Assembly (NCBI GenBank): GCA_024233595.1
Contig: JACKPK010000001.1
Location: forward strand, 267,665-331,664
Length of the DNA stretch: 64,000 nt
Origin: Deltaproteobacteria bacterium
GTDB taxonomy: Bacteria; UBA10199; JADGCS01
Reading direction: 5' to 3'
In this document: one piece after another, positions 1 to 12,866 of the stretch
Numbering within the stretch: position 1 is the first letter of the stretch
Layout of the letters: the number at the start of each line of letters is the position of its first letter
Program-made: the position numbers and the translations under genes
Notes under the pieces: model-generated
Seen by the model: the letters and a program-made list of their open reading frames with translations, nothing else
The model's database searches: none
Told to the model about the DNA's origin: nothing

Positions 1-673
1 TTGCTTTGGCTCCTTTAGTACAAGGCCAAATGATTGTGCTCGATACATCATTTGCAATTCAGCATCAGGAATATCCGGCGCTGGGCTGCTCATAAAACCC
101 TAATTTATTATTCAGTAAGTGCAGCAAAAAACTTTTTGGCCTATGGTTTTCACGATAGCGACACCGCCACTGTCCTGAAATAGGAAGAAAACTCAGCATG
201 CCTTTGCGGTGGGCAAAAAATAAAATTGCCCTTTGTCCCAGCACCTTTACCTACAAGCCGTGCGGTATTCGAGCAGTAATCTACGTTAAACCAATTCGCA
301 AATGGAGCGACGAAACCCGTGCAACGTCTACAAAAAATTCTATGTTGAAGCTCATCAGCACTGTCTGACCAACAAATGCCTACTCAAATCAGTTGTGGAA
401 ATAAATCGCCGCGAAATCAGCCTACACTACGATCAACACTCGGAACGACTCATCATCTATTCGGCTCTAGATAATCTTTTAAAAGGCGCCTCTGACAGGC
501 TGTGCAGTGTTTTTAATTTAATGCATGGTTTTGAAGAAACTCTGGGGCTAGAGAAATTCGCTGTGTTTCGCAATGATTTGGTTTCATCAATTTCGCCCCC
601 CGCTTATAATCGCCACAAACTTATCGTTGCTGCTTCGTCCCAAAATCTCCGCAACACAATCACCAATCAATGA
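1..673 (+). pseudogene. argC: Eroded N-acetyl-gamma-glutamyl-phosphate reductase (argC) remnant, 3' two-thirds, multiple frameshifts/stops
   Basis: ArgC-like peptides appear only when the reading frame is switched. Frame 3 from nt 3 gives 'ALAPLVQGQMIVLDTS'. Frame 2 at nt 59-85 gives 'SASGISGAG' (cf. ArgC SGVSGAG). Frame 3 from nt 159 gives 'RHRHCPEIGRKL...FTYKPCGIRAVIY' (cf. HRHxPEI, FTPHL..RGI). Frame 2 ORF 302-673 gives 'LIIYSALDNLLKGA...NLMHGFEETLGL' (cf. DNLxKGAAGQAVQN.NLMFG..E..GL). Stop codons separate the segments. Confidence 0.6.
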
Positions 674-800
674 ATTTTGAGATGAAAAATCTAATGCCTC
701 TGGCAGCAATTGTGCGGTATGAGGAAACCAAATTATTTTCCTGTAGAATTTTTTGTTAATGCGTTGAAGAGAATTTAAAACGGCATCAATATAAAATTTT

Positions 801-1712
801 TCATGAATTACCTCTTAAAAAATAATGAACATCCCTTACAAAGTCTTCTGGTTGTTCTAAATGAGGGTAGTGGCCGGAGTTGCGGTAACTTTTAATATGG
901 GCCAATTCTGGGTTTCCTGTCATTTCGCCACCCATTAAATAGTCATGAACCCCATTAATCCAAAGAGTTTTTTGTTTGAGAATGCTTACATCAATGGGTA
1001 GAACTTGAGAATTATCGGCGTAATACGATGTGCGGACTTGACGATAGATATCATCATTTTCAGCGATGTTGACCCGTGATTTAAGATCATCATACCAGGC
1101 CATCGTCTTGAGGTTGCCCCAATAAAATGCCTTACGACGCTCAGTCGAGTTCATTAGTCCACGAATTTCTTTAGAGACTTCCCATGGCGAGCCATTGTGA
1201 CATTTTAATATTTCTAAGGCTTGCATGTATTCCTGTGGTTGGTCTTCCTTTAAAATCAATAGGTCCATTGAGAGCGAGCGTTGCTGTGCCAATCGTCTAT
1301 CTACTGAGCGGCCAGCGATGATAAGTCTTAACAATAAATTCGGTCTATGTTTAAGTAAATCATAGGCTAAAAAGGCCCCATAACTATGACCAAAAATGGC
1401 AATTGTTTCTACATCTAATGCACTTTTTACTTGGTCACAAATATCTGATAGGTCTTGTCTATTGATGCTGTGGGTTAAAGCTGATGAAGCCCCTGCTGAA
1501 CGTCCGCATCCGCGTTGATCGTAACAAACCCAACCATAATCCATATTTTGATAAGCGGGGAGTTCTTGAAGTGCTTTTTCGAAGTAAGCACTGTGGCTCC
1601 CTGGCCCTCCATGAACGTAAAGAATATATCCTTTTACAGGCCTCGAAATATTTTCCGGTTCAAAAAGATTTGTTACCAAACCATTCACAATCGCACTGTT
1701 AACCAGCTTCAT
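801..1712 (-). CDS. Alpha/beta hydrolase, prolyl aminopeptidase (S33)-like
   Basis: 303-aa ORF. Carries 'HGGPGSHS' and 'YDQRGCGRS' motifs typical of proline iminopeptidase-family hydrolases, plus the nucleophile elbow 'GHSYGA' (GxSxG). Confidence 0.7.
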   Translation of the reverse strand: MKLVNSAIVNGLVTNLFEPENISRPVKGYILYVHGGPGSHSAYFEKALQELPAYQNMDYGWVCYDQRGCGRSAGASSALTHSINRQDLSDICDQVKSALDVETIAIFGHSYGAFLAYDLLKHRPNLLLRLIIAGRSVDRRLAQQRSLSMDLLILKEDQPQEYMQALEILKCHNGSPWEVSKEIRGLMNSTERRKAFYWGNLKTMAWYDDLKSRVNIAENDDIYRQVRTSYYADNSQVLPIDVSILKQKTLWINGVHDYLMGGEMTGNPELAHIKSYRNSGHYPHLEQPEDFVRDVHYFLRGNS

Positions 1713-1931
1713 AAATGTCTCTCTGTTTTAAATTTTTATCACATTATTTTGTAATGTATTCAAAAGAGCAATAATCATTCCAAAAACTTAGAAATTAACT
1801 ACGACTTCTTTTTTACAAAGCCACCCTATTTTTCTTAATATTCATTGTGGTGGACTGATCTTTTGAGGCAATACTGTGAGTTAGACACTTTGGCTATGCT
1901 GGCAATTTGGGAGTACTAGACAACACGCTAA

Positions 1932-4874
1932 CTAAGCAGTCTCTTTTATTTCTGTTTTGTGGAATAACGATTTAATATCACGTTCACTGACAGTAAAATC
2001 TTTTATCAACTCTTTCTTTTCTTGAGATAATCTAGCTAGCCAAACATCAACAATTGGGCTCCCATCAATTGTATCGACTACTTGGTCTTCACTTTTAGAC
2101 GCTATTGCTGTCGGGAAATATATCGATACAGGCTTTTTCTGACCCATCCGGTAAGCCCGACAAGTCGCCTGTTCAGTAACTGCAGGGTTCCACTCTCTAG
2201 TGTAATGTATAACATGATTTGCTTGTGTTAAAGTAATACCATAAGCAGCACTTCTCGGGTTGAGTATCATCACATCAAATTCATTAGGTGCAGCTCTTTT
2301 AAACTCTGCTACAGCATGGTCTCTCAAAGGTTTGTATTTACTACTCCCATCAAATATTTTCGGCGTCACTGTTTTAAAATGCATACCGATCAAATGCCGT
2401 AAATGATCACTTAGCTGTGTCCTGTTACAAAATATTAGGGCTTTTTCGCCTTTCTGATGAATCCTTTCTAAGATACTAAGAAGCAGATCAAATTTTGGGC
2501 ACATTGATTTTGCTAATTCAACGGAGGGGAAGGTCGCACGGTACCCATTTTCAGCCGCGAGGGAGCTTAGCCAGGGGGCGTTCACTACTATCTGTAGTTC
2601 GTGATAAAGAGGTAAAACCCCACCGACTGATTTGGCTAATATATTTCTATACAACCTAATCTGGTCTTCTGTAAGTGGGGCTGTTGTCTCACTCCATGGG
2701 ACATCAATTCTTTTTGGCAATTCATCTAAAACTTCTTCTTTAGTTCTTCTCAGCCAATTCTTACCCAAACGCCTCACTATACTTTTCCTGATTTCATCTC
2801 GCTCTTCGGAGCCAATTACCGATTGTTCAAGGGGCTGCAGGAAACTTTTTTGAAAATTAGTTAAGCTTCCAAACCTTTCACTTTGGACAAATTCCATGAT
2901 AGAATACAGATCAGAAAGTCGATTTTCCACTGGGGTACCAGTCATCGCACAGTAAAAATCTGCCTTAAAGCATTTTAAGGCTTCACTACGTTTAGAATTT
3001 AAATTTTTAATTGCTTGTGCCTCATCAATAATAACAACTTTAAAAGGCACAGCTGCTAACTCCTTGTGGTACAAGGTAGCACTTTGCCAAGTTATAAGTA
3101 GTACTTTACATAGCTTTGGTATATCTTGTTGAGCACGGAGGATTCGTTGATCTAATTGATGTGGCCCTCTAAGTATGTTTTTAATATCATTCCAAGATCT
3201 AGTAAATTTAGCTAGGCCAGGTGCAAATTTGTTTATATCTTCTTCCCAAGCATGTTTGATTAACGCGGCAGGAGCTATAATAATAGCAGGCTTCTCGTCT
3301 AATTCACCTTTTTTGAATAAAGCGTCCAAGAAGCTAATAACCTGAAATGTTTTGCCCACGCCCATATCATCAGCTAGCAAAAGTCCCCTGTGTGGTATTT
3401 TACCATCTTCCTTGTGGGCCAGTAGCCAAGATAATCTTGCAAAGCCAACTTTTTGATGAGGTCTCAACATGTCATCATGAGGTGCTGGTATATCATTGGC
3501 AAAATCGGACTCGCTTTTTTCTGGAGGCAATCCCATACTAGCTGCATAGTCGGCATCACGGAGTAAGCGTGTTTCTTCACTGACCCTAGCATTGTATTCA
3601 TTTCTTAATTTTAGAACAGCAACTTCGACAATATCTCTCACAAAAGAAACATCATCTATTATTATAGGATTGTCAGTCGATTGGTCGAGGCACGACTGTA
3701 GCTCATCTGAGGAATATTTACTTAGTTTACCAAGTTGATATGATTCAACAGCTTCAACAAATCTTGCAGCCTCTTCTTTACTAATCTCAAAATCTGAGTA
3801 ATTTACATCTCCGCTCTGATCTTCCAATTGCTCTTTAATCGCACGGTACTCCTCGTGACAGTTATCTAAGTTAACAGAAAATGGGCATGTTGAGTTCTTT
3901 GCCTCGATAAAAAAGTTTCTGTTTTCATTATCAAGTTTTTCGTCATAACCAGCATCATCCTTTGGGACTTTGTAATTTACTGGATCATAAGTAAACCCTA
4001 AAACTTGGTCAGAATAATTGGCAACCAACAGTTCGAATGCAACACCTTCTTGGCCATCACTCTGCATGTCATAAATTTCAGCCTGGAGTCTTCTGATGGC
4101 ATCTGGATCGTTGCTCACACGCGCTTCGTACAATTTTTTTGCCGCTTCTCTGCATCTCTCACTCATATAAACACGGGTTCTTTTGTCGCCTACTTTTGTG
4201 TGATAAATATTTTTAGATGCCCCGTCCTTATATATTTCTTCCCACAGCTTTGAATTAAGTTTCTGATCGTCATCCACTAATTTGGGTGCTATAGAAGGTT
4301 CATTTGCGCTATTAACCCCAAATTCGACTGGAAAACTGTCCTTAGCAATCACATCTACTCTTTGACTATTGCCTGACAAAATAACATTTGGACTAGATGT
4401 AGCTATTTCTTTTATCAGCTCATACTGTTTGTAAAATCTAAACTCAGCTTGGCTATCGTCACCGTGACTATCATTATTAAAATTGTCTATAAGCTTAATT
4501 AAGTTATAAATATCGGCTGGTATAAGTTTAGTTTCGCCATCTATACTAATTTGAAAATCAGAACGCCGTGATAAATCTGGTTTACTGCCACTTTTACTTG
4601 TGACCAAGTAGTCAAATCTCATGCTCTTTGACTTTAATGCACCATTGCTTCTTATGGATAAGTTGAGATCAGCAAAGCTTGGGATATGCTGAAAAAGTGT
4701 ATCGTCTATCGAAAACTCACTACTACCAATAGCCTTCCAAACAGCCCATAAAGCGTCACAACTAAACGTCACACTATCGGCGGTAAAACAGGCCCCCAGA
4801 TTTATAAGCTTTTCTTTGTCCAGCTTGATTTTATTTTGAAGTTCCTCATCAACAATATTAAAAGGTATCTTCAT
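1932..4874 (-). CDS. zorD: ZorD-like SNF2-family ATPase/helicase (Zorya effector candidate)
   Basis: 980-aa ORF. The C-terminal half has the full SNF2 motif set: 'DDMGVGKT' (GVGKT = nt 3348-3362), 'VVIIDEAQAIKN' (DEAQ = nt 3015-3026), 'MTGTPVENRLSDLYS' and 'QATCRAYRMGQ'. The N-terminal ~465 aa has no motif I can name. It is the last gene of a tightly packed operon behind MotA/MotB-like genes. Confidence 0.75.
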   Translation of the reverse strand: MKIPFNIVDEELQNKIKLDKEKLINLGACFTADSVTFSCDALWAVWKAIGSSEFSIDDTLFQHIPSFADLNLSIRSNGALKSKSMRFDYLVTSKSGSKPDLSRRSDFQISIDGETKLIPADIYNLIKLIDNFNNDSHGDDSQAEFRFYKQYELIKEIATSSPNVILSGNSQRVDVIAKDSFPVEFGVNSANEPSIAPKLVDDDQKLNSKLWEEIYKDGASKNIYHTKVGDKRTRVYMSERCREAAKKLYEARVSNDPDAIRRLQAEIYDMQSDGQEGVAFELLVANYSDQVLGFTYDPVNYKVPKDDAGYDEKLDNENRNFFIEAKNSTCPFSVNLDNCHEEYRAIKEQLEDQSGDVNYSDFEISKEEAARFVEAVESYQLGKLSKYSSDELQSCLDQSTDNPIIIDDVSFVRDIVEVAVLKLRNEYNARVSEETRLLRDADYAASMGLPPEKSESDFANDIPAPHDDMLRPHQKVGFARLSWLLAHKEDGKIPHRGLLLADDMGVGKTFQVISFLDALFKKGELDEKPAIIIAPAALIKHAWEEDINKFAPGLAKFTRSWNDIKNILRGPHQLDQRILRAQQDIPKLCKVLLITWQSATLYHKELAAVPFKVVIIDEAQAIKNLNSKRSEALKCFKADFYCAMTGTPVENRLSDLYSIMEFVQSERFGSLTNFQKSFLQPLEQSVIGSEERDEIRKSIVRRLGKNWLRRTKEEVLDELPKRIDVPWSETTAPLTEDQIRLYRNILAKSVGGVLPLYHELQIVVNAPWLSSLAAENGYRATFPSVELAKSMCPKFDLLLSILERIHQKGEKALIFCNRTQLSDHLRHLIGMHFKTVTPKIFDGSSKYKPLRDHAVAEFKRAAPNEFDVMILNPRSAAYGITLTQANHVIHYTREWNPAVTEQATCRAYRMGQKKPVSIYFPTAIASKSEDQVVDTIDGSPIVDVWLARLSQEKKELIKDFTVSERDIKSLFHKTEIKETA

Positions 4875-4884
4875 AATTCCTCTT

Positions 4885-6102
4885 TCAAAACCTATTTATA
4901 TATTTTCTTAGCTGATCAACACTATCCGTATTCCGCATTAGGTTCAGCACTGTGGACATTCGACTCTGCCAATACTTACCCTGGTGAGTCATTCGAGCAC
5001 TCATGTCACTTTTGTAGTCAGTAAATTCTTTAGCTCTTACTTCATCAAGCTTGTACCGGTAGTCATTAAATATATACACAGCACCACTTTCAGACTTTTC
5101 AACTACCCAAAAGTTATTGAATCGCATGCCAACAGCGTATGGAATTTTGCTTTTATAGTGTATTTCAAAGTCATCAATTTGATGCCAATAGTCAGACCAA
5201 AAAGCCTGCCTATCTAGATCTCTAAGAATTTTGTCTTTGACCTTTTGCCAGTCCAATAATTTTCGAATAAACTCCTCGTTCAATGCATTTGGCGACACAT
5301 GGGAGTCACCCTCAATGTGATAGAGAATCTCATTGCGTGATTTATAAACAGGAACGTCAACAAGCTCCGTAATAATCTGCACCAATTTATCGAGAGTTAT
5401 TTTTTTATCAGTGGTTAAACCATTCAGTACTGTTACTATACTATCGAAGCTCTCTTGACACCCAAAATCCCATGCAAGCTTCGCGGCACTATGAATTGCC
5501 TCTGTCTCCATCAGTGCCAACCTATGAGAATCAATTTCACTTAGGACAGACCTACATAACTCGATTCTTATTTCGTCACGAAAGTCAGTACCTATATTTT
5601 CTAGTAGCCCCAACAAATCTAAATCCTTGTCTTTGAAAGCCGTACTTAAGCTATCTATAAGATTGCCAACTGCATAGTAAGAACTATAATTTTCAACCAC
5701 ACCTACTGGTAGGTTGTCTTTTGCAACTTGATTTAAGATCTCCTTCCGTATCACCAAGGGAAGGTCGACAGCTATCAAAACACGCTGTGCAATGCGTGCC
5801 ATATATGGCCATCGCTCGGGATAACTGGCAAGATAGTGCTCTAGCCCCTCGATCTCGAGGGCTAGTTCTGAGTATCTCTTTAAAGAAAATAAAAAATGAT
5901 GCCTGTCCAAACTATACGTTGCATCTAATAGATCCGATTTTATTTTATTCTTAATTTCATCTAGGCCAATATACTCTCTCAGTTTAAGATCAGTTTTTTG
6001 AGAAACGCCCTCTACCAAAGCGAGCATTCGTTCAGGCTTTTTTTCTTTTAGCGGGATAGACTTCAACAACATGCCTAATTCAATTTTATCTAGCACACTC
6101 AT
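4885..6102 (-). CDS. zorC: ZorC-like protein (possible EH-signature domain), compact
   Basis: 405-aa soluble ORF in the third operon position. Its start overlaps the zorB stop by 1 nt (TAATG). The C-terminal pattern 'FWVVEKSESGAVYIF' (E335) followed by 'MTHQGKYW' (H373) resembles the separated Glu/His signature recalled for ZorC. The assignment rests mostly on synteny. Confidence 0.45.
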   Translation of the reverse strand: MSVLDKIELGMLLKSIPLKEKKPERMLALVEGVSQKTDLKLREYIGLDEIKNKIKSDLLDATYSLDRHHFLFSLKRYSELALEIEGLEHYLASYPERWPYMARIAQRVLIAVDLPLVIRKEILNQVAKDNLPVGVVENYSSYYAVGNLIDSLSTAFKDKDLDLLGLLENIGTDFRDEIRIELCRSVLSEIDSHRLALMETEAIHSAAKLAWDFGCQESFDSIVTVLNGLTTDKKITLDKLVQIITELVDVPVYKSRNEILYHIEGDSHVSPNALNEEFIRKLLDWQKVKDKILRDLDRQAFWSDYWHQIDDFEIHYKSKIPYAVGMRFNNFWVVEKSESGAVYIFNDYRYKLDEVRAKEFTDYKSDMSARMTHQGKYWQSRMSTVLNLMRNTDSVDQLRKYINRF

Positions 6103-6839
6103 TACTTGAAAAACTCCTTAAGACTCTTTTCTAGTGACTCAGGTTTTATGTAAAACCTTACAACTACTCGTCGGCTTGCACCATAATCAATCCAACCACA
6201 GCCTCTATTAGAATGATTGGTACACACATCATTCTGATGTTCTGTCTTCCTCGTAACGGGAAAAGCCCAAGAACGACCGTTTGCAGCCACCAACTTTTCG
6301 ATAAGGTATTTTTTGTCTAACCTATTTTTATAAACTGGCGAGTCTGTTCTGAGTACATGACTCGAAACATTAAAAGCACGAGACTGAGAAAGCTTTAAGT
6401 TATTAAAGTACTCACCTGTCGGATCTGAGTGCCCTTCAAACATTACAGATTCAACAGAATTAAAATATTGGTCTCTGAGCATAACGTTCAAATATCTAGG
6501 CATTATAATGTCTAACAATGTCTTGCCTGGCTCCTTCATGTCAGCACTGTTTAAATCAAATAACACTGCCTCATCGAAAGTTATGTCTCCATTATCATTA
6601 ATCTGAAATGATTTAGTTTTTAATGAACCCAACTCTTCGCGGAGGTCTTTTGTAATTTGGCTTCTTATACTAAAGGCCTCTTCGATTTTACTACGCACCT
6701 GTTCATTGGTCTTGGTCGTTTTGTTCCATTGACCAATTATCAGCACTAAGATGAGTATGAAGGTCAGTGCTAACGCTGACATCAAATCAGTAGTGCTTAT
6801 CCAAATATGCGATTGATCGCTTTCTTTACTTCGTTTCAT
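6102..6839 (-). CDS. zorB: ZorB-like MotB/OmpA-family peptidoglycan-binding stator subunit
   Basis: 245-aa ORF. It has a single N-terminal TM segment with a MotB-like 'WISTTDLMSALALTFILIL' containing a buried Asp (D18, nt 6786-6788). The C-terminal OmpA-like motif is 'FEGHSDPTGEYFNNLKLSQSRA'. Confidence 0.8.
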   Translation of the reverse strand: MKRSKESDQSHIWISTTDLMSALALTFILILVLIIGQWNKTTKTNEQVRSKIEEAFSIRSQITKDLREELGSLKTKSFQINDNGDITFDEAVLFDLNSADMKEPGKTLLDIIMPRYLNVMLRDQYFNSVESVMFEGHSDPTGEYFNNLKLSQSRAFNVSSHVLRTDSPVYKNRLDKKYLIEKLVAANGRSWAFPVTRKTEHQNDVCTNHSNRGCGWIDYGASRRVVVRFYIKPESLEKSLKEFFK

Positions 6840-6846
6840 GACACCA

Positions 6847-8475
6847 CTATCTATTTACTGCATTTTTTAGTTCTCTTATTTGTGATTCAAAAAGGGCTGC
6901 AATATTTTTAAAATTATCGGGAAGTTCTTTCGCAAAGCTATTGTTTACCTCATCAATTTTTGACAAATACTTATTGAGACCTTCAATATTTCTTTCATAA
7001 TCGGCCAATGAGTCCTGCAAATTTGTAATACCTGCAGCGAGTGCTTCATCAAACTTACCCAAGAAACCATCTACACGACCATTAACTGTCTCCAGGTGGT
7101 TGTTTACCAAGGAAGCAAAATCATTATGAGCTTTCACAAAACTTTCGCTGCTTTCTCGCCAACCAGTTATTAACTCGTTTTGAGAGGAATTAGATTTTTC
7201 TAGTATATCAGTGATTCGCAATGTAGATTCATCTATCTGCTTCAACTGTTCATTTGATTTTTCAACCATCTGACTCGTCTCGTTAACTATTGCAGATACT
7301 TTACCCTCTACTGATACCAAGTCAGAGTTAACCTGTGACGACTTCTCTAGATTGACCTGTTGAATATCTGACAGCTCTTTGATTCTTTTAGAAATCTCCA
7401 GTTGATCTGTATTTATATATTGCACCTGCTGAAAAACAAAGACGAACCAAGATTGGAACTGGTGGAGCATCTCTGTAATTTTTGCAAACTCAGATTCGAT
7501 TGATTCTCTCAGTTTTTCACCAACTTTATCTGACAACATACCACTATCCATGCCACTCAATGCGGAAAGAACTTTGTTCATTGAATTAAACTCTGCCCCA
7601 AGGCCACCATTGACTGCTTCTCCAATTTTTGCAGCCAACCCATTATCAGTCTCATCTACAATGACAGCAATGTCTTGTGCCATTCTCTTTATGTTGTAGT
7701 TTAAAGTGACTAATAACTCTTCACCAGTGACTCGAGGTATGAGATTGTCAATATGATAAGACAAATCGCTTACGGCTTTTTCTATCTTGTCTTGATAAAT
7801 GCGATTCACAAATGAAAATATCAAAGAGGTCGTCACACCGTAAAAGCTACTAATAAAAGCTACTTTCATCGACTCAAGGAGTCTCGTAGTCCCCTCTGAT
7901 AGTTGGTCAAAATGAATACCAGACAAGCCAGTAATGATACCATAAAAGGTCCCAAGTATACCTAAGCCACTTAAAATTGTTGGTGTGAGGTTATAGATAT
8001 GATCTGAAAAAATGCCTGTAACAATATTGTTCCAGCTAAATATCTCCGAGGCAGGTATCGCATTACCTACATTTTGATCACTTTCGCTGTTATTACGATT
8101 GTTATAAGCAGGGATACCCTCTTTATATTCTTCCCACAGTTTTTCTACGGTTTCGTGACACTTAAAAGTATCATCAAGCTCATTTAGATCAGAAAGCGTA
8201 GTAACACTACCATGCTTTTTCTGACCTAGTTGATGATTCACAATTATCAGGTGAGTCATTAGGGATTTAAATTGCTGCCGCATATAGGCGAGCATGCCGC
8301 AAAACCACATTATAACCAGGGAAGAAAACACTGCCGTGGGCGTATTTATCAATGGGTCTGGTATAGCGCTAATGTGGATATCGTATACTTTTAGTATCCA
8401 AACTACAGCTGTCACAAGCACCGCTATCAATATTGACACTCTAAATGCTTTTCTATTTTCTGAATCGTATTTCAT
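6847..8475 (-). CDS. zorA: ZorA-like MotA/ExbB/TolQ-family ion-channel subunit with long C-terminal helical tail
   Basis: 542-aa ORF. It has two N-terminal TM helices and then a MotA-type TM pair ('LTPTILSGLGILGTFYGIITGL', 'MKVAFISSFYGVTTSLIFSFV'). About 315 aa of polar, helix-prone tail follow. The SD GAGG lies 7 nt upstream of the ATG. Confidence 0.8.
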   Translation of the reverse strand: MKYDSENRKAFRVSILIAVLVTAVVWILKVYDIHISAIPDPLINTPTAVFSSLVIMWFCGMLAYMRQQFKSLMTHLIIVNHQLGQKKHGSVTTLSDLNELDDTFKCHETVEKLWEEYKEGIPAYNNRNNSESDQNVGNAIPASEIFSWNNIVTGIFSDHIYNLTPTILSGLGILGTFYGIITGLSGIHFDQLSEGTTRLLESMKVAFISSFYGVTTSLIFSFVNRIYQDKIEKAVSDLSYHIDNLIPRVTGEELLVTLNYNIKRMAQDIAVIVDETDNGLAAKIGEAVNGGLGAEFNSMNKVLSALSGMDSGMLSDKVGEKLRESIESEFAKITEMLHQFQSWFVFVFQQVQYINTDQLEISKRIKELSDIQQVNLEKSSQVNSDLVSVEGKVSAIVNETSQMVEKSNEQLKQIDESTLRITDILEKSNSSQNELITGWRESSESFVKAHNDFASLVNNHLETVNGRVDGFLGKFDEALAAGITNLQDSLADYERNIEGLNKYLSKIDEVNNSFAKELPDNFKNIAALFESQIRELKNAVNR

Positions 8476-8477
8476 TA

Positions 8478-8750
8478 CTACCTCATGAATAAATCCGTAA
8501 TCTTAACTTTCAAGGCGCCTGATACTTAAACCAAAGTTTTGAGCGTCGCATTTTTTTGACCAAACTCTATAAACTGCCAATAACGCAACGATGTGCCAGC
8601 GCGATATACACACTCTTGTTGACTTAATTTTTTTGAAATTCTGATGCGCTTGATTTTTGAACCTAACTTCGTGGTCACGAGACAAAACCGAATATAGCGA
8701 AGATCCAAACGCAACCAATATATCTTGAGCAAATATTTTGGCAATATCAC
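8478..8750 (-). pseudogene. XRE-family helix-turn-helix regulator interrupted by in-frame TAA, abutting zorA
   Basis: Frame B reads 'KLGSKIKRIRISKKLSQQECVYRAGTSLRYWQFIEFGQKNATLKTLV*VSGALKVKITDLFMR*'. This matches the HTH_3 pattern (..glsq.e.a...g.s...is.iE.G.r.psl.tl.kia.aL.v...dLf) on both sides of the stop at 8526-8528. The restored frame ends at 8478, 2 nt before the zorA ATG. The true start is uncertain: GTG at 8678 is plausible, and the ORF-track ATG is at 8750. Confidence 0.55.
8717..8744 (-). promoter_or_regulatory. Candidate sigma70-type promoter for the HTH-zorABCD unit
   Basis: The minus strand reads TTGCCA (8739-8744), a 16-nt spacer, then TATATT (8717-8722). It sits upstream of the GTG at 8678. 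Sequence pattern only. Confidence 0.3.
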
Positions 8751-8830
8751 CAGTACCGATGATCTCCCTATTCAGCATACAAACCTTTTCTTTTTGGTAT
8801 TTAGAGTCGATTTGGCTAATAAATAAAGCT

Positions 8831-8864
8831 ATTCCAATTTTTTTAAAATCCTAAAAATTGGAAT
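8831..8864. repeat. Perfect 12-bp inverted repeat (ATTCCAATTTTT / AAAAATTGGAAT) with 10-nt spacer
   Basis: Read directly: 8831-8842 and 8853-8864 are exact reverse complements. The repeat lies in the AT-rich intergenic region between aguA and the HTH/zorA unit. Confidence 0.8.
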
Positions 8865-9120
8865 ATAAACTGAGCTAAAAACTCTTTTTATTTCAAAAAC
8901 CTAAAATCAACCTGCTCATAAAACCTATAGGCAATAACATCTGTCTAAATTTATCTACACAACTGTCCAAAATATTGGAAAGCAGTCCAGTATTTTTAAC
9001 ACTTTTAATCAATAAACTGCGCCTACTCTTTCCTTCTCGGCAAAGAGGCCAATATGTTGCGTCTTTTTAGAAATGATTAGAATTTATTTAGATTGATTTC
9101 AAAATTCGCCAGGAAATCCC

Positions 9121-10176
9121 CTACACCGCCGGAATTTGCTGACTCAGGCAATGCAAGCTCCCATACCCCAGAACCAGGTGAACCGCGTCGATCAACACGA
9201 CCTTATGGTTTGGCATGAGCTCTTGCAAAATGCTTTGTGCGATTTGATCTTGAGGGCAACCATACGAAGGCAAAAGCACCTTTTGGTTGGTGATCAAAAA
9301 ATTAGCGTAGCTTGCGGGCAAACGTTCACCATCGATCACAACAGGGTTTGGCATGGGCAAGCGCACCAAATGAAAAGGTCGTCCGTTTAGATCCCGTGCT
9401 TCTTTTAAACTTGTCTCCAATGTCTGAAGCGCTTTGTAGTTTTGATCAGAGGAGTCCTCTTCGTGAATGTAAACAATGGTGTTGGGGTTTACAAAACGAG
9501 CGGCGTCATCAACATGACCATTGGTGTCGTCACCTTGGATCTCACCATCGAGCCAAATGATTTTTTTAATACCAAGGTACTGGCTCAAAGTGGCTTCGAT
9601 TTCAGACGCCGTAAAATGAGCGTTTCTATTTTGATTGAGCAAACAATCTTTGGTGGTGAGCAAAATGCCCTCACCATTGGCATCAATCGATCCGCCTTCT
9701 AAAACAAAAGGGATCGAAAATTTTTCCTGGTCAAGCAATTGAGCGAGCTTGGGTGTGACTTGGTTATCGAGACTATAAGCGGCACTGTACTTGTCGCCCC
9801 AAGCGTTAAAGGTCCAATCCAAAAATAGGCGTTGCTTTTGATCGTGATTAAGCAAACTGATGGGACCATAGTCACGAATCCAAGAATCAAAATAAGGGAT
9901 TTGAAAAAACGTCACGCGATCAATTTGCACACCACCCAAAAGCAAACGGTTACGCACAAGCTGCTCTTGTTCAGAAGACTCCACCAACAACCACACATTT
10001 TGATGATCAGCTATTTCGCGAATAAAAGGGATAAAGCATTCCTGAGCCTCGGGCAAATGACCCGGCCAGGTGTCTGGGTTTTTAGGCCAAGCAAGCAAAA
10101 TGGCCTGCTGAGGATGCCATTCGGCAGGCAATGTGAATCCAGATTGTTTTAAGGATGGCAAATGATGGTGATACAC
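9121..10176 (-). CDS. aguA: Agmatine deiminase
   Basis: 351-aa ORF of the peptidyl-arginine/agmatine deiminase family. It has N-terminal 'PAEWHPQ', 'WIRDYGP', and the C-terminal catalytic Cys motif 'GYGSLHCLSQQIP'. It is adjacent to aguB. Confidence 0.85.
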   Translation of the reverse strand: MYHHHLPSLKQSGFTLPAEWHPQQAILLAWPKNPDTWPGHLPEAQECFIPFIREIADHQNVWLLVESSEQEQLVRNRLLLGGVQIDRVTFFQIPYFDSWIRDYGPISLLNHDQKQRLFLDWTFNAWGDKYSAAYSLDNQVTPKLAQLLDQEKFSIPFVLEGGSIDANGEGILLTTKDCLLNQNRNAHFTASEIEATLSQYLGIKKIIWLDGEIQGDDTNGHVDDAARFVNPNTIVYIHEEDSSDQNYKALQTLETSLKEARDLNGRPFHLVRLPMPNPVVIDGERLPASYANFLITNQKVLLPSYGCPQDQIAQSILQELMPNHKVVLIDAVHLVLGYGSLHCLSQQIPAV

Positions 10177-10194
10177 CCGTACCTCACGTTAGCG

Positions 10195-11076
10195 TCAATC
10201 TTGTCCAAAGCGCTTCAAAAGCCCGTCATAGGCATCAATGCGTCGATCCCGTAAAAAAGGCCAGCCACGACGATGCTCTTCGATGCGATTTAAATCGCAG
10301 CTCACAAGGATATTCTCTTCGTCGGTATGAGAAGCCTTGTGCACGATCTCACCAAAGGGATCTGCCACAAAAGAACCACCCCAGAATTCGATATTGCCCT
10401 CGCGCCCCACACGGTTCGGAGAAGCCACAAAAACCTCGTTAGCAATGGCATGACCAACCTGAACCCGCTGCCAGGCGTTGTATTGCTTGTCTCCGAAGAC
10501 TTTTTTGTCCTGTTCAAGCCAACCAATGGCTGTTGGATAGAAAATGATCTCAGCGCCTTGTAGAGCCGTTAAACGAGCACCCTCTGGAAACCACTGATCC
10601 CAGCAAATGAGCACCCCAATTTTAGCAAATTTAGTGTCAAAAACCTTAAAACCCATATCACCAGGGGTGAAATAGAATTTCTCGTAATAATTGGGGTCAT
10701 CGGGGATGTGCATTTTGCGGTACTTACCCAAATAAGAACCATCGGCATCAATAACAGCAGTGGTGTTGTGATAAAGTCCAGGGGCACGCTTTTCAAAGAG
10801 GCTTGCCACAATCACGACGCCCTCTTCTTTCGCCACAGCCTGTAAAATTTCGGTTGTGGGACCAGGGATCGCTTCAGCAAGGTCAAAAAGATCAGCGTCT
10901 TCCTTCTGGCAAAAATACAGATTATTAAAAAGCTCCTGAAAGCAAATGATTTGAGCGCCATCGGCCGCCAATTGGCGGCAATTTTTAATGGCCTTATCGA
11001 GATTGCCCTGTGTGTCACCAGAACAAGTCATTTGCACCAAGCCCAGTTTAACTTCTCGCGATTTGCCCATACGCAT
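10195..11076 (-). CDS. aguB: N-carbamoylputrescine amidase (CN-hydrolase/nitrilase family)
   Basis: 293-aa ORF with 'FQELF', 'KMHIPDDPNYYEKFYFTPGD' and 'IGVLICWDQWFPEGAR' (catalytic Cys), typical of N-carbamoylputrescine amidohydrolase. It is paired with aguA. Confidence 0.85.
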   Translation of the reverse strand: MRMGKSREVKLGLVQMTCSGDTQGNLDKAIKNCRQLAADGAQIICFQELFNNLYFCQKEDADLFDLAEAIPGPTTEILQAVAKEEGVVIVASLFEKRAPGLYHNTTAVIDADGSYLGKYRKMHIPDDPNYYEKFYFTPGDMGFKVFDTKFAKIGVLICWDQWFPEGARLTALQGAEIIFYPTAIGWLEQDKKVFGDKQYNAWQRVQVGHAIANEVFVASPNRVGREGNIEFWGGSFVADPFGEIVHKASHTDEENILVSCDLNRIEEHRRGWPFLRDRRIDAYDGLLKRFGQD

Positions 11077-11106
11077 CTCCTATGCGAATCTTATTAATAC
11101 GTTTTC

Positions 11107-11140
11107 AAAAAAAAAGCCAAAACGACATTCGCGTTTTGGC
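11107..11140 (-). terminator. Rho-independent terminator after rplQ
   Basis: The minus strand reads GCCAAAACG-CGAATGT-CGTTTTGGC followed by T9. It lies ~30 nt after the rplQ stop. Confidence 0.8.
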
Positions 11141-11170
11141 TTCTCGAAAAAATTCGATTTTAGGCTCACT

Positions 11171-11773
11171 TTATTTATCTGTAGCCTTTTTCTTAGCTGC
11201 CGCTTTCTTTTTTGGAGCTGCTTTCTTTGCTGTTGTTTTTTTAGCAGCAGCCTTTTTAGCTGGCTTCTTTTCAGCATCATCAGCTTTTTTAGCTTTTGTT
11301 GCTGTCTTAGCTTTCTTTTCTTCTTTTGCTGTTTCTTCAGATTTTTTAGCCGCTGGTTTCTTCTTAGGAGCCGCTTTTTTCTCAGCTACTTTTCCTTCAA
11401 CCTTAGCAGAAAGCAAATCTTCCTGAAGGTATTCAATGATAGCCATCTGAGCAGCATCACCAACACGGTGACCAAGCTTCATGATACGTGTGTAACCACC
11501 TTTGCGTGCTTCAAAAGAAGGAGCAATTTCAGCAAAAAGTTTTTGAACACCAGCTCGATTGCGAAGCAAATCGAATGCCTTACGGCGAGCGTGCAAGCTG
11601 TCTTCTTTACTGATAGTCACAAGCTTGTCGGCAAAACGACGAAGCTCTTTTGCTTTTTCCAAAGTTGTCTTGATACGACCATGCTCAATCAAAGAGCTAG
11701 CCATATTTCTAAGCATCGCTTTACGGTGAGAAGAAGTTCTTCCCAATTTGCGACCTTTTACCTGATGTCTCAT
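11171..11773 (-). CDS. rplQ: 50S ribosomal protein L17 with ~75-aa Lys/Ala-rich C-terminal extension
   Basis: The N-terminus '[37 protein letters not shown]' is canonical bL17. The ORF is 200 aa, and the tail is '[15 protein letters not shown]...[12 protein letters not shown]'. Confidence 0.95.
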
Positions 11774-11825
11774 AGTGATTCTCCAATGCAGAACTCATTG
11801 CCCTGCGAATAACGCCAACGCTTTC

Positions 11826-12866
11826 TTAGAAAGCATCTCCTTCAGGAGCTGGCTTTGGAGCTGCTACAGCAGCTTCATCGGGAAGATTCCAATTATCGAT
11901 CTTCATTCCCAAGCCAAGACCCATTTCTGTTAAAATTTCTTTGATCTCATTCAAAGATTTACGACCAAAGTTTTTGGTGCGAAGCATTTCCATTTCGGAT
12001 TTTTGCACCAATTCACCAATGTAACGAATGTCAGCATTTTGAAGACAGTTTGCTGAGCGAACAGAAAGCTCAAGCTCATCAACGCGACGGTTAAGGTTCT
12101 CGTTGATATTGCTTGTTTCCATGAACACAGGTGCTTCTTCAGGCTCTTCGAATTCGTCAAAGTTAATGAAAACTTGAATTTGATCTTTAAGAATTTTGGC
12201 TGCGTACGCCAAAGCATCTTCAGGGTTCACAGAACCATTTGTCCAAACTTCTAAGTTAAGACGATCGTAATCTGTTACTTGACCAACACGTGCGTTTGTC
12301 ACTGTGTAGTTAACACGAGTCACAGGAGCAAAGTGAGCATCAATGAACATGGTGCCAATAGGAGCTTCGGCTTTTTTGTTTTCGTCTGCCAAAACATAGC
12401 CCTTGCCCATTTCGACTTCGACTTCCATGTTGAGCTTGCCTTCGCTGCCCAAAGTCGCAATTTCTAAATCTGGGTTAAGGATCTCAACACGACCACCTGT
12501 ATCAAAATCACCTGCGCGAACAACACCAGCTTCAGAGACATTCAATGTCATTGTCGCGTGCTCAGCGTCCAAAAGTTTCAAACGAACTTTTTTAAGGTTC
12601 AAGATGATGTTGATCACATCTTCTTTAACGCCAGGGATTGTTGAAAATTCATGTTGCACGCCATCGATCTTTACAGATGTGATAGCAGCGCCTTGTAAAG
12701 AGCTTAGCAAAATACGACGAAGAGCATTACCAAGAGTTATGCCGAATCCACGCTCCAAAGGTTTTGCAATGAATTTTGCATAAGTGTCCGACTTATGATC
12801 TTTATCGATTTCGATAAATTTTGGTCGGATCAAACTTCTCCAGTTTTTATAAATCGGAATTGACAT
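11826..12866 (-). CDS. rpoA: DNA-directed RNA polymerase subunit alpha
   Basis: 346-aa ORF with '[17 protein letters not shown]' and the C-terminal domain '[24 protein letters not shown]'. It sits in the alpha-operon position. Confidence 0.97.

Follow-up and report, generated by a model that had tools for sequence, protein, structure and literature searches.

The closest described systems are those of the controller (C) proteins of restriction-modification (R-M) systems, of which C.AhdI (1Y7Y), C.BclI (2B5A) and C.Esp1396I (3CLC) are each built of one XRE domain with five helices and 65-80 residues. They act both as activators and as repressors, and in C.Esp1396I and C.AhdI, whose five-helix subunits form a weak dimer, helix 5 makes part of the interface (PMC2504287). 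The C-box operator is about 35 bp long, comprises two palindromic sites and is found no more than about 100 bp ahead of the C gene; mobile elements, too, carry homologues of C proteins that have no R-M system with them (PMC2632904). Other defence islands have regulators of different build, such as RptR and the WYL proteins BrxR and CapW. CBASS systems may be accompanied by CapH, a small XRE repressor whose partner is the protease CapP. Little is known, to our knowledge, about the regulation of Zorya. Regulators of the BrxR family, which are of WYL type, reportedly occur beside Zorya (PMC9122601), and for EcZorI, the type I Zorya of E. coli NCTC 9026 described by Hu et al. (Nature 2024), a 'native promoter' is given and no regulator gene is mentioned (PMC11946911).

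The Zorya operon considered here lies on the minus strand near one end of the window, that is, the whole 64,000-nucleotide stretch of DNA that was analysed. Its first gene, zorA (6847..8475), matches PADLOC ZorA1 at 1e-29; it is followed by zorB (6102-6839; PADLOC ZorB1, 4e-48), by a zorC-like third gene of 405 residues (4885-6102), for which no PADLOC match and no meaningful Pfam match were found, and by zorD (1932-4874; PADLOC ZorD1, 4e-119). The Pfam families found in the operon are MotA_ExbB, OmpA and SNF2. The gene order zorA-zorB-(zorC)-zorD is thus that of EcZorI, and it is the PADLOC type I models that were matched; EcZorI is described with no regulator gene, whereas here the remains of an HTH gene are fused to the front of the operon. 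Beyond these remains the upstream neighbour is an agmatine deiminase-type gene, aguA (Pfam PAD_porph). The HTH gene (38% GC) is as low in GC as zorA-D (37.5-39%), compared with 46-47% on the flanking aguA side, which speaks for its belonging to the island of Zorya. At window positions 302-673 (plus strand) there is an ORF of 123 residues which matches, at 20 bits, only the last third of a semialdehyde dehydrogenase dimerisation domain; this is consistent with an argC gene beside the island that survives only as a fragment, a decayed relic.

Direct translation of the minus strand between window positions 8478 and 8750 gives a single frame reading VILPKYLLKIYWLRLDLRYIRFCLVTTKLGSKIKRIRISKKLSQQECVYRAGTSLRYWQFIEFGQKNATLKTLV, a stop codon, VSGALKVKITDLFMR and a second stop codon. 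Its 5' part, counted from GTG 8678, the nearest in-frame start, runs over 50 codons (8529..8678, minus), which code for helices 1-3 of an XRE domain and for helix 4 as far as its middle. It ends at a premature in-frame TAA (8526..8528, minus) that occupies position 51 of the domain. The 15 codons that follow (8481..8525, minus), VSGALKVKITDLFMR, now untranslated, correspond to the rest of helix 4 and to helix 5 of the XRE fold, and they lead to the ancestral stop of the HTH gene, a TAG (8478..8480, minus) lying 2 nt ahead of the zorA ATG (8475-8473). The last codons and the stop of this ancestral frame are overlapped by GAGGT (8480..8484, minus), a Shine-Dalgarno-like sequence that can be read directly 4 nt before the ATG and is likely the zorA ribosome-binding site; since zorA keeps this site of its own, the operon is still translatable. 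An earlier sequence-only reading of this DNA had already given the frame, its coordinates, the position of the TAA and the 2-nt gap to zorA, all of which translation shows to be correct. There is thus an in-frame stop within a conserved domain, with homologous sequence going on in the same frame beyond it, as in a pseudogene, and because the frame is the same on either side of the TAA the lesion must be a base substitution and not an indel.

That reading had also held that the TAA is flanked by consecutive parts of one XRE/HTH_3-type domain, and this is borne out by Pfam, PADLOC HTH_VI, phmmer and a family HMM. The Pfam scores stay below the curated cut-offs: HTH_19 rises from 19.2 bits for the truncated form to 23.1 bits with the tail (cut-off 30.2), and HTH_3 (PF01381, clan HTH) appears only with the tail, aligned along its full profile (positions 1-55 of 55) at 20.4 bits (cut-off 23). 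PADLOC HTH_VI, whose models are independent of the sequence studied, scores the truncated form at 26.2 bits; the real tail raises this to 35.3 bits, eight scrambled tails give 25.4-27.2 bits, and the alignment reaches residue 65 with the real tail only. When 1.84 billion representative proteins were searched exhaustively with phmmer, 981 XRE relatives came up at E <= 0.001 (best 1.7e-12), and nearly all of the alignments span residues 3-5 to 63-65, that is, they run across the TAA. No candidates came from a word-based protein search with the 66-residue read-through form. With a family HMM built from 40 single-domain relatives, themselves retrieved with the read-through query, the truncated form scores 69.5 bits vs 92.2 bits for the read-through form, a gain of 22.7 bits; shuffled tails give a mean of 70.2 and a maximum of 78.3 bits, none of 1000 equalling the real one.

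At the level of single residues, the column of the stop is occupied in 149 aligned single-domain relatives mostly by arginine (64), lysine (35), alanine (21) or glutamine (13). Tail residues V52, A55, L56, V58, D62, L63 and F64 are the commonest, or joint first, at their positions among these relatives, and I60 is the second commonest. At least 13 residues follow the stop column in all 144 single-domain relatives for which this could be measured (median 18.5), and the shortest protein among the 120 profile matches listed has 61 aa, though candidates from 36 aa upward were admitted. By these scores and alignments, the 15 codons past the TAA are genuinely homologous to the end of the domain. The earlier reading had named two ways in which it might fail, namely that relatives share the short form or that the 15-codon tail is not homologous to the domain; neither came about, as 0 of the 144 measurable relatives stop near the TAA column and both the family HMM and PADLOC HTH_VI gain from the tail. 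The claim that the ancestral frame reached 8478-8480 and so abutted zorA likewise holds, on the translation together with the homology of the tail.

From an alignment of 20 sequences AlphaFold2 models the read-through form very confidently (pLDDT 95.9), with the five helices of the XRE fold (residues 2-15, 20-27, 31-38, 46-55 and 60-63), with helices 2 and 3 forming the HTH. The TAA at position 51 falls in the middle of helix 4 (46-55). According to the model, the present-day product would be without helix 5 and without half of helix 4, so that it would indeed be truncated, as had been proposed, though the loss is not limited to the last helix. Because the missing parts belong to the hydrophobic core and to what is the dimer interface in C proteins, a product cut in helix 4 is most likely unable to fold stably, to dimerise or to bind DNA, and it is from this predicted instability and loss of dimerisation and DNA binding that the gene is regarded as a pseudogene.

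The read-through form shares the single five-helix XRE domain of the C proteins, and these are its closest relatives of known structure. A PDB profile search puts C.AhdI first (7.7e-19) and QseC next (7.7e-18), followed by C.BclI and C.Esp1396I. The top Foldseek matches of the model are C.AhdI (1Y7Y) and C.BclI (2B5A), with a TM-score of 0.92 and an rmsd of 0.7 A over 63 columns at 30-32% identity, and the TM-scores against C.AhdI, C.BclI and ClgR are 0.91-0.92. The PADLOC Control_protein models are matched at 1.2e-6 and 2e-6. By PADLOC, PDB profile and Foldseek alike, then, the protein, small and made of one XRE domain, closely resembles C proteins. The arrangement is similar too, since the gene lies directly upstream, on the same strand, of a potentially self-damaging defence operon. 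The differences are that zorABCD stands downstream in place of a restriction endonuclease gene and no methyltransferase is nearby, that the gene is broken by a stop codon, and that no recognised 35-bp double C-box has been identified upstream, where inspection gave only unrelated palindromes. No R or M gene was found in window positions 1-12000 by the ORF list, Pfam or PADLOC, so that the R-M context of a C protein is missing.

CapH resembles the protein in being a small HTH protein beside a defence system, and PADLOC capH is matched at 6e-5; its N-terminal domain (7T5U) is a weaker fold match (TM-score 0.77). No CapP-like protease gene is present, the neighbours being zorA and aguA. There is no further ORF between the HTH gene and either of these, and Pfam finds no peptidase family in the neighbours. 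As against BrxR, CapW and RptR, what is encoded here is a bare HTH with no WYL domain and no sensor part. The best reading of these comparisons is that the protein belongs to the C-protein-like XRE group that is mobile and associated with defence, its nearest kin in sequence and fold being the C proteins themselves.

For each of the three nearest relatives, all at 48% identity, the gene immediately precedes another that is read from the same strand, and two of them head small defence-type cassettes. One of these two (L005, 8001-10930) lies 25 nt before a ThsB-TIR gene, in a cassette made up of ThsB-TIR and two unknown genes; the other (L006, 7977-10325) stands ahead of a Zn-ribbon gene and an Mrr-type nuclease within an integrase/Prim-Pol integrative element. 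The third relative (L007) precedes an unknown gene of 159 residues. More distant relatives are found in the switch region of a prophage, or with integrases and insertion sequences as neighbours. None of the relatives' loci that were looked at adjoins Zorya. It may be that this XRE subgroup, marked by the motif RYWQ.iE.G..N.T, repeatedly supplies the 'front gene' of defence cassettes.

No recognisable HTH gene was found before zorA in four plasmid Zorya or Zorya-like loci (from Prevotella, Spirosoma, Vibrio and Nostoc), so that a general association of such genes with zorA was not seen there, nor was there any HTH in the 260 bp of upstream sequence available for a 29%-identical ZorA homologue on a 2.3-kb contig. 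Two of the plasmid loci have features of their own. The locus on plasmid2 of Nostoc sp. HK-01 is type I-like, with ZorA, ZorB, a 480-residue gene and a helicase, and a gene of 116 residues without a Pfam match (L017, 2058-2408) lies 16 nt upstream of its zorA on the same strand. On the plasmid of Prevotella sp. E2-28 (L014, 1-7880) a ZorA/ZorB-like pair has on either side a gene whose annotation is DNA translocase FtsK, partners which differ from ZorC/D, ZorE and ZorF/G.

For the present locus, the case for a regulator of Zorya is one of position: the gene is on the same strand as zorA and 2 nt from it, its frame contains the zorA ribosome-binding site, and its GC content is equally low. On these grounds it is plausible that the HTH protein controlled zorABCD. 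The more specific proposals of the earlier reading, a dedicated regulator that was perhaps a repressor and an operon that may now be constitutive, go beyond what this position shows.

Upstream of the gene is an AT-rich gap of 442 bp; it is unique in the genome, which rules out an origin from a repeat or mobile element. It contains several sequences which, by inspection, can be offered as leads only. These are a promoter-like site, TTGCCA-16 nt-TATATT (8717..8744, minus), which agrees with the consensus at 10 of 12 positions although such sites are no more numerous than in shuffles; an imperfect palindrome (8722-8747) overlapping it; a perfect 13-nt inverted repeat, TATTCCAATTTTT / AAAAATTGGAATA, with a 10-nt spacer (8830..8865), a candidate operator or hairpin; near this, 19 nt repeated in direct orientation (8838-8856 and 8888-8906); and a further inverted repeat of 19 nt, an imperfect one, at 8961-9004. 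The sequence CCAAAATATTKG has two exact copies in the 64-kb window, at 8730-8741 (minus) and 8967-8978 (plus), both of them in a stretch of some 450 bp that takes in the HTH gene or the DNA ahead of it, the former overlapping the -35 and spacer of the promoter-like site. The copies might be a pair of operator half-sites; this too is a lead only, since the motif was picked after seeing the data and its count with one mismatch, six occurrences, was reached by 2 of 100 shuffles.

Where translation began is uncertain. The sequence-only reading started the frame at GTG 8750, which is one of three candidate starts, the others being GTG 8678 and ATG 8778. GTG 8678, which gives MTTKLGSK..., leaves five residues before the conserved Gly, at the 5th percentile of 144 relatives. 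It has no Shine-Dalgarno sequence in front, an observation of relevance to the leaderless or weakly initiated transcripts, with autogenous activation and repression, by which C proteins are marked. GTG 8750 adds 24 residues of odd composition, and the codon score of this segment (8750 to 8679) is about zero. ATG 8778 opens a neighbouring frame whose first 37 codons (8668..8778, minus), MLNREIIGTGDIAKIFAQDILVAFGSSLYSVLSRDHE, have a codon score of 7.76, a value attained in only 2% of this genome's open non-coding windows, with 77% of true coding windows scoring higher; AAAGG stands 5 nt upstream. From the same ATG runs the longest ORF at the locus, of 91 codons (8503-8778, minus) and without a family match, in which those first 37 codons are coding-like by codon usage and the last 54 cover the HTH domain out of frame. 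Being the longest there, it would probably be chosen by a gene caller, but it should not be taken as real: it is an out-of-frame artefact over the broken HTH gene, and annotations should not present 8503-8778 as a protein.

These observations bear on whether the gene has been broken once or twice. The ancestral product might have been a protein of about 99 residues starting at ATG 8778, with a 37-residue N-terminal extension, whose gene has since suffered a 1-nt frame change near 8670-8690 in addition to the TAA. ATG 8778 is the sole candidate start with a Shine-Dalgarno-like sequence (AAAGG, at 5 nt), GTG 8678 having none; the 37 codons score 7.76 vs about zero for the 24 from GTG 8750; and the N-terminus from GTG 8678, at the 5th percentile with its five residues before the conserved Gly, is short. 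Yet 9 of the 144 relatives are equally short at the N-terminus, the model that begins at GTG 8678 has the whole of helix 1, MLNREIIGTGDIAKIFAQDILVAFGSSLYSVLSRDHE has no homologue among about 150 phmmer relatives or in plasmids or phages, and two recent lesions are less parsimonious than one. Such double damage is possible but on the whole doubtful; it would make the gene a more advanced pseudogene and is compatible with the explanation by a nonsense mutation, from which it differs in the number of lesions.

The remaining explanations concern the TAA itself. The assembly is of metagenome type, in 15 contigs and 78% complete, and the codon in question rests on one consensus sequence, as the locus was found in no second assembly: its DNA is absent from 40 relatives by DNA search, ZorB is absent from all 93 genomes of the phylum, a search for ZorA in 185,579 species genomes and 5.8 billion proteins returned this one contig only, plus the 29%-identical homologue, and two exact-pattern scans of metagenome contigs gave no match to the locus. 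The TAA could therefore be an assembly or sequencing artefact, or a minority allele that entered the consensus, with a sense codon in reality and an intact regulator of 65 residues. The tail has no further damage, as would be expected of an error or minority variant, and this intactness fits a recent mutation, a polymorphism or an error alike. However, a substitution that keeps the frame is not the usual consensus error, which would be an indel in a homopolymer, and all four zor genes downstream are intact, so that the local sequence quality looks good; an artefact is accordingly judged improbable. Another thought is that the short protein is itself the functional form, a genuine HTH variant of 50 residues and three and a half helices acting as a DNA-binding protein, a dominant-negative or a small regulatory peptide. 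It would retain helices 2-3, which read DNA, and the conserved Asn43, but the stop cuts helix 4 in half, no relative among 144 ends near the stop column, the minimum being 13 further residues, and the tail is conserved at the protein level, as sequence that was never translated would not be; this is very improbable. Programmed read-through or recoding of the TAA, which would yield full-length protein at a low level and for which the homologous open frame beyond it might speak, had been put forward earlier and scarcely deserves belief, since TAA is the commonest stop in the genome and ends 619 of 1182 long ORFs. Among the 13 HTH_3 matches in the genome an internal stop occurs only in the one adjacent to zorA and in none of the other 12, and no Rfam match was found in 8300-9300 at E-values up to 1. 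We know of no reassignment of TAA in bacteria. An alternative code is in any case ruled out, the standard code following from the use of TAA as main stop together with the 12 stop-free HTH_3 matches.

A recent nonsense mutation in a C-protein-like gene heading the zorABCD operon, leaving it a pseudogene, is thus probably what has happened here. The lesion should be recent because the tail, though untranslated, still has the conserved residues of the family, eight of its positions carrying the commonest or second commonest. The course of events would have been that a single-domain XRE-family gene, ending 2 nt before zorA, led a horizontally acquired zorABCD cassette; that one base substitution then placed a TAA halfway along helix 4; and that the product, now ending at residue 50 (counted from GTG 8678), lost half of helix 4 and all of helix 5 and most likely became unstable, with no dimerisation and no DNA binding. 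By analogy with what C proteins do for endonuclease genes, the intact protein may have autoregulated a promoter upstream of itself and hence the transcription of Zorya, and its loss would then have changed Zorya expression. As C proteins both activate and repress (PMC2504287), the change could have been up or down.

It is a more speculative suggestion, and as it stands an unlikely one, that the intact protein was a C-protein-like timing switch, which delayed or limited zorABCD after horizontal transfer and was lost once the island was established. Were it true, there would be controller-type regulation in some Zorya systems, and the locus would be a natural 'controller knock-out'. A regulator gene disrupted by a nonsense mutation at the head of a defence operon is an ordinary kind of event, and with the gene dead and no orthologue available the locus gives a hint only and not a finding for Zorya in general. 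What it hints is that a dedicated controller once went with the Zorya system here; a controller-type HTH gene at the front of Zorya would suggest that some Zorya systems, like restriction enzymes, need their expression to be timed or limited.
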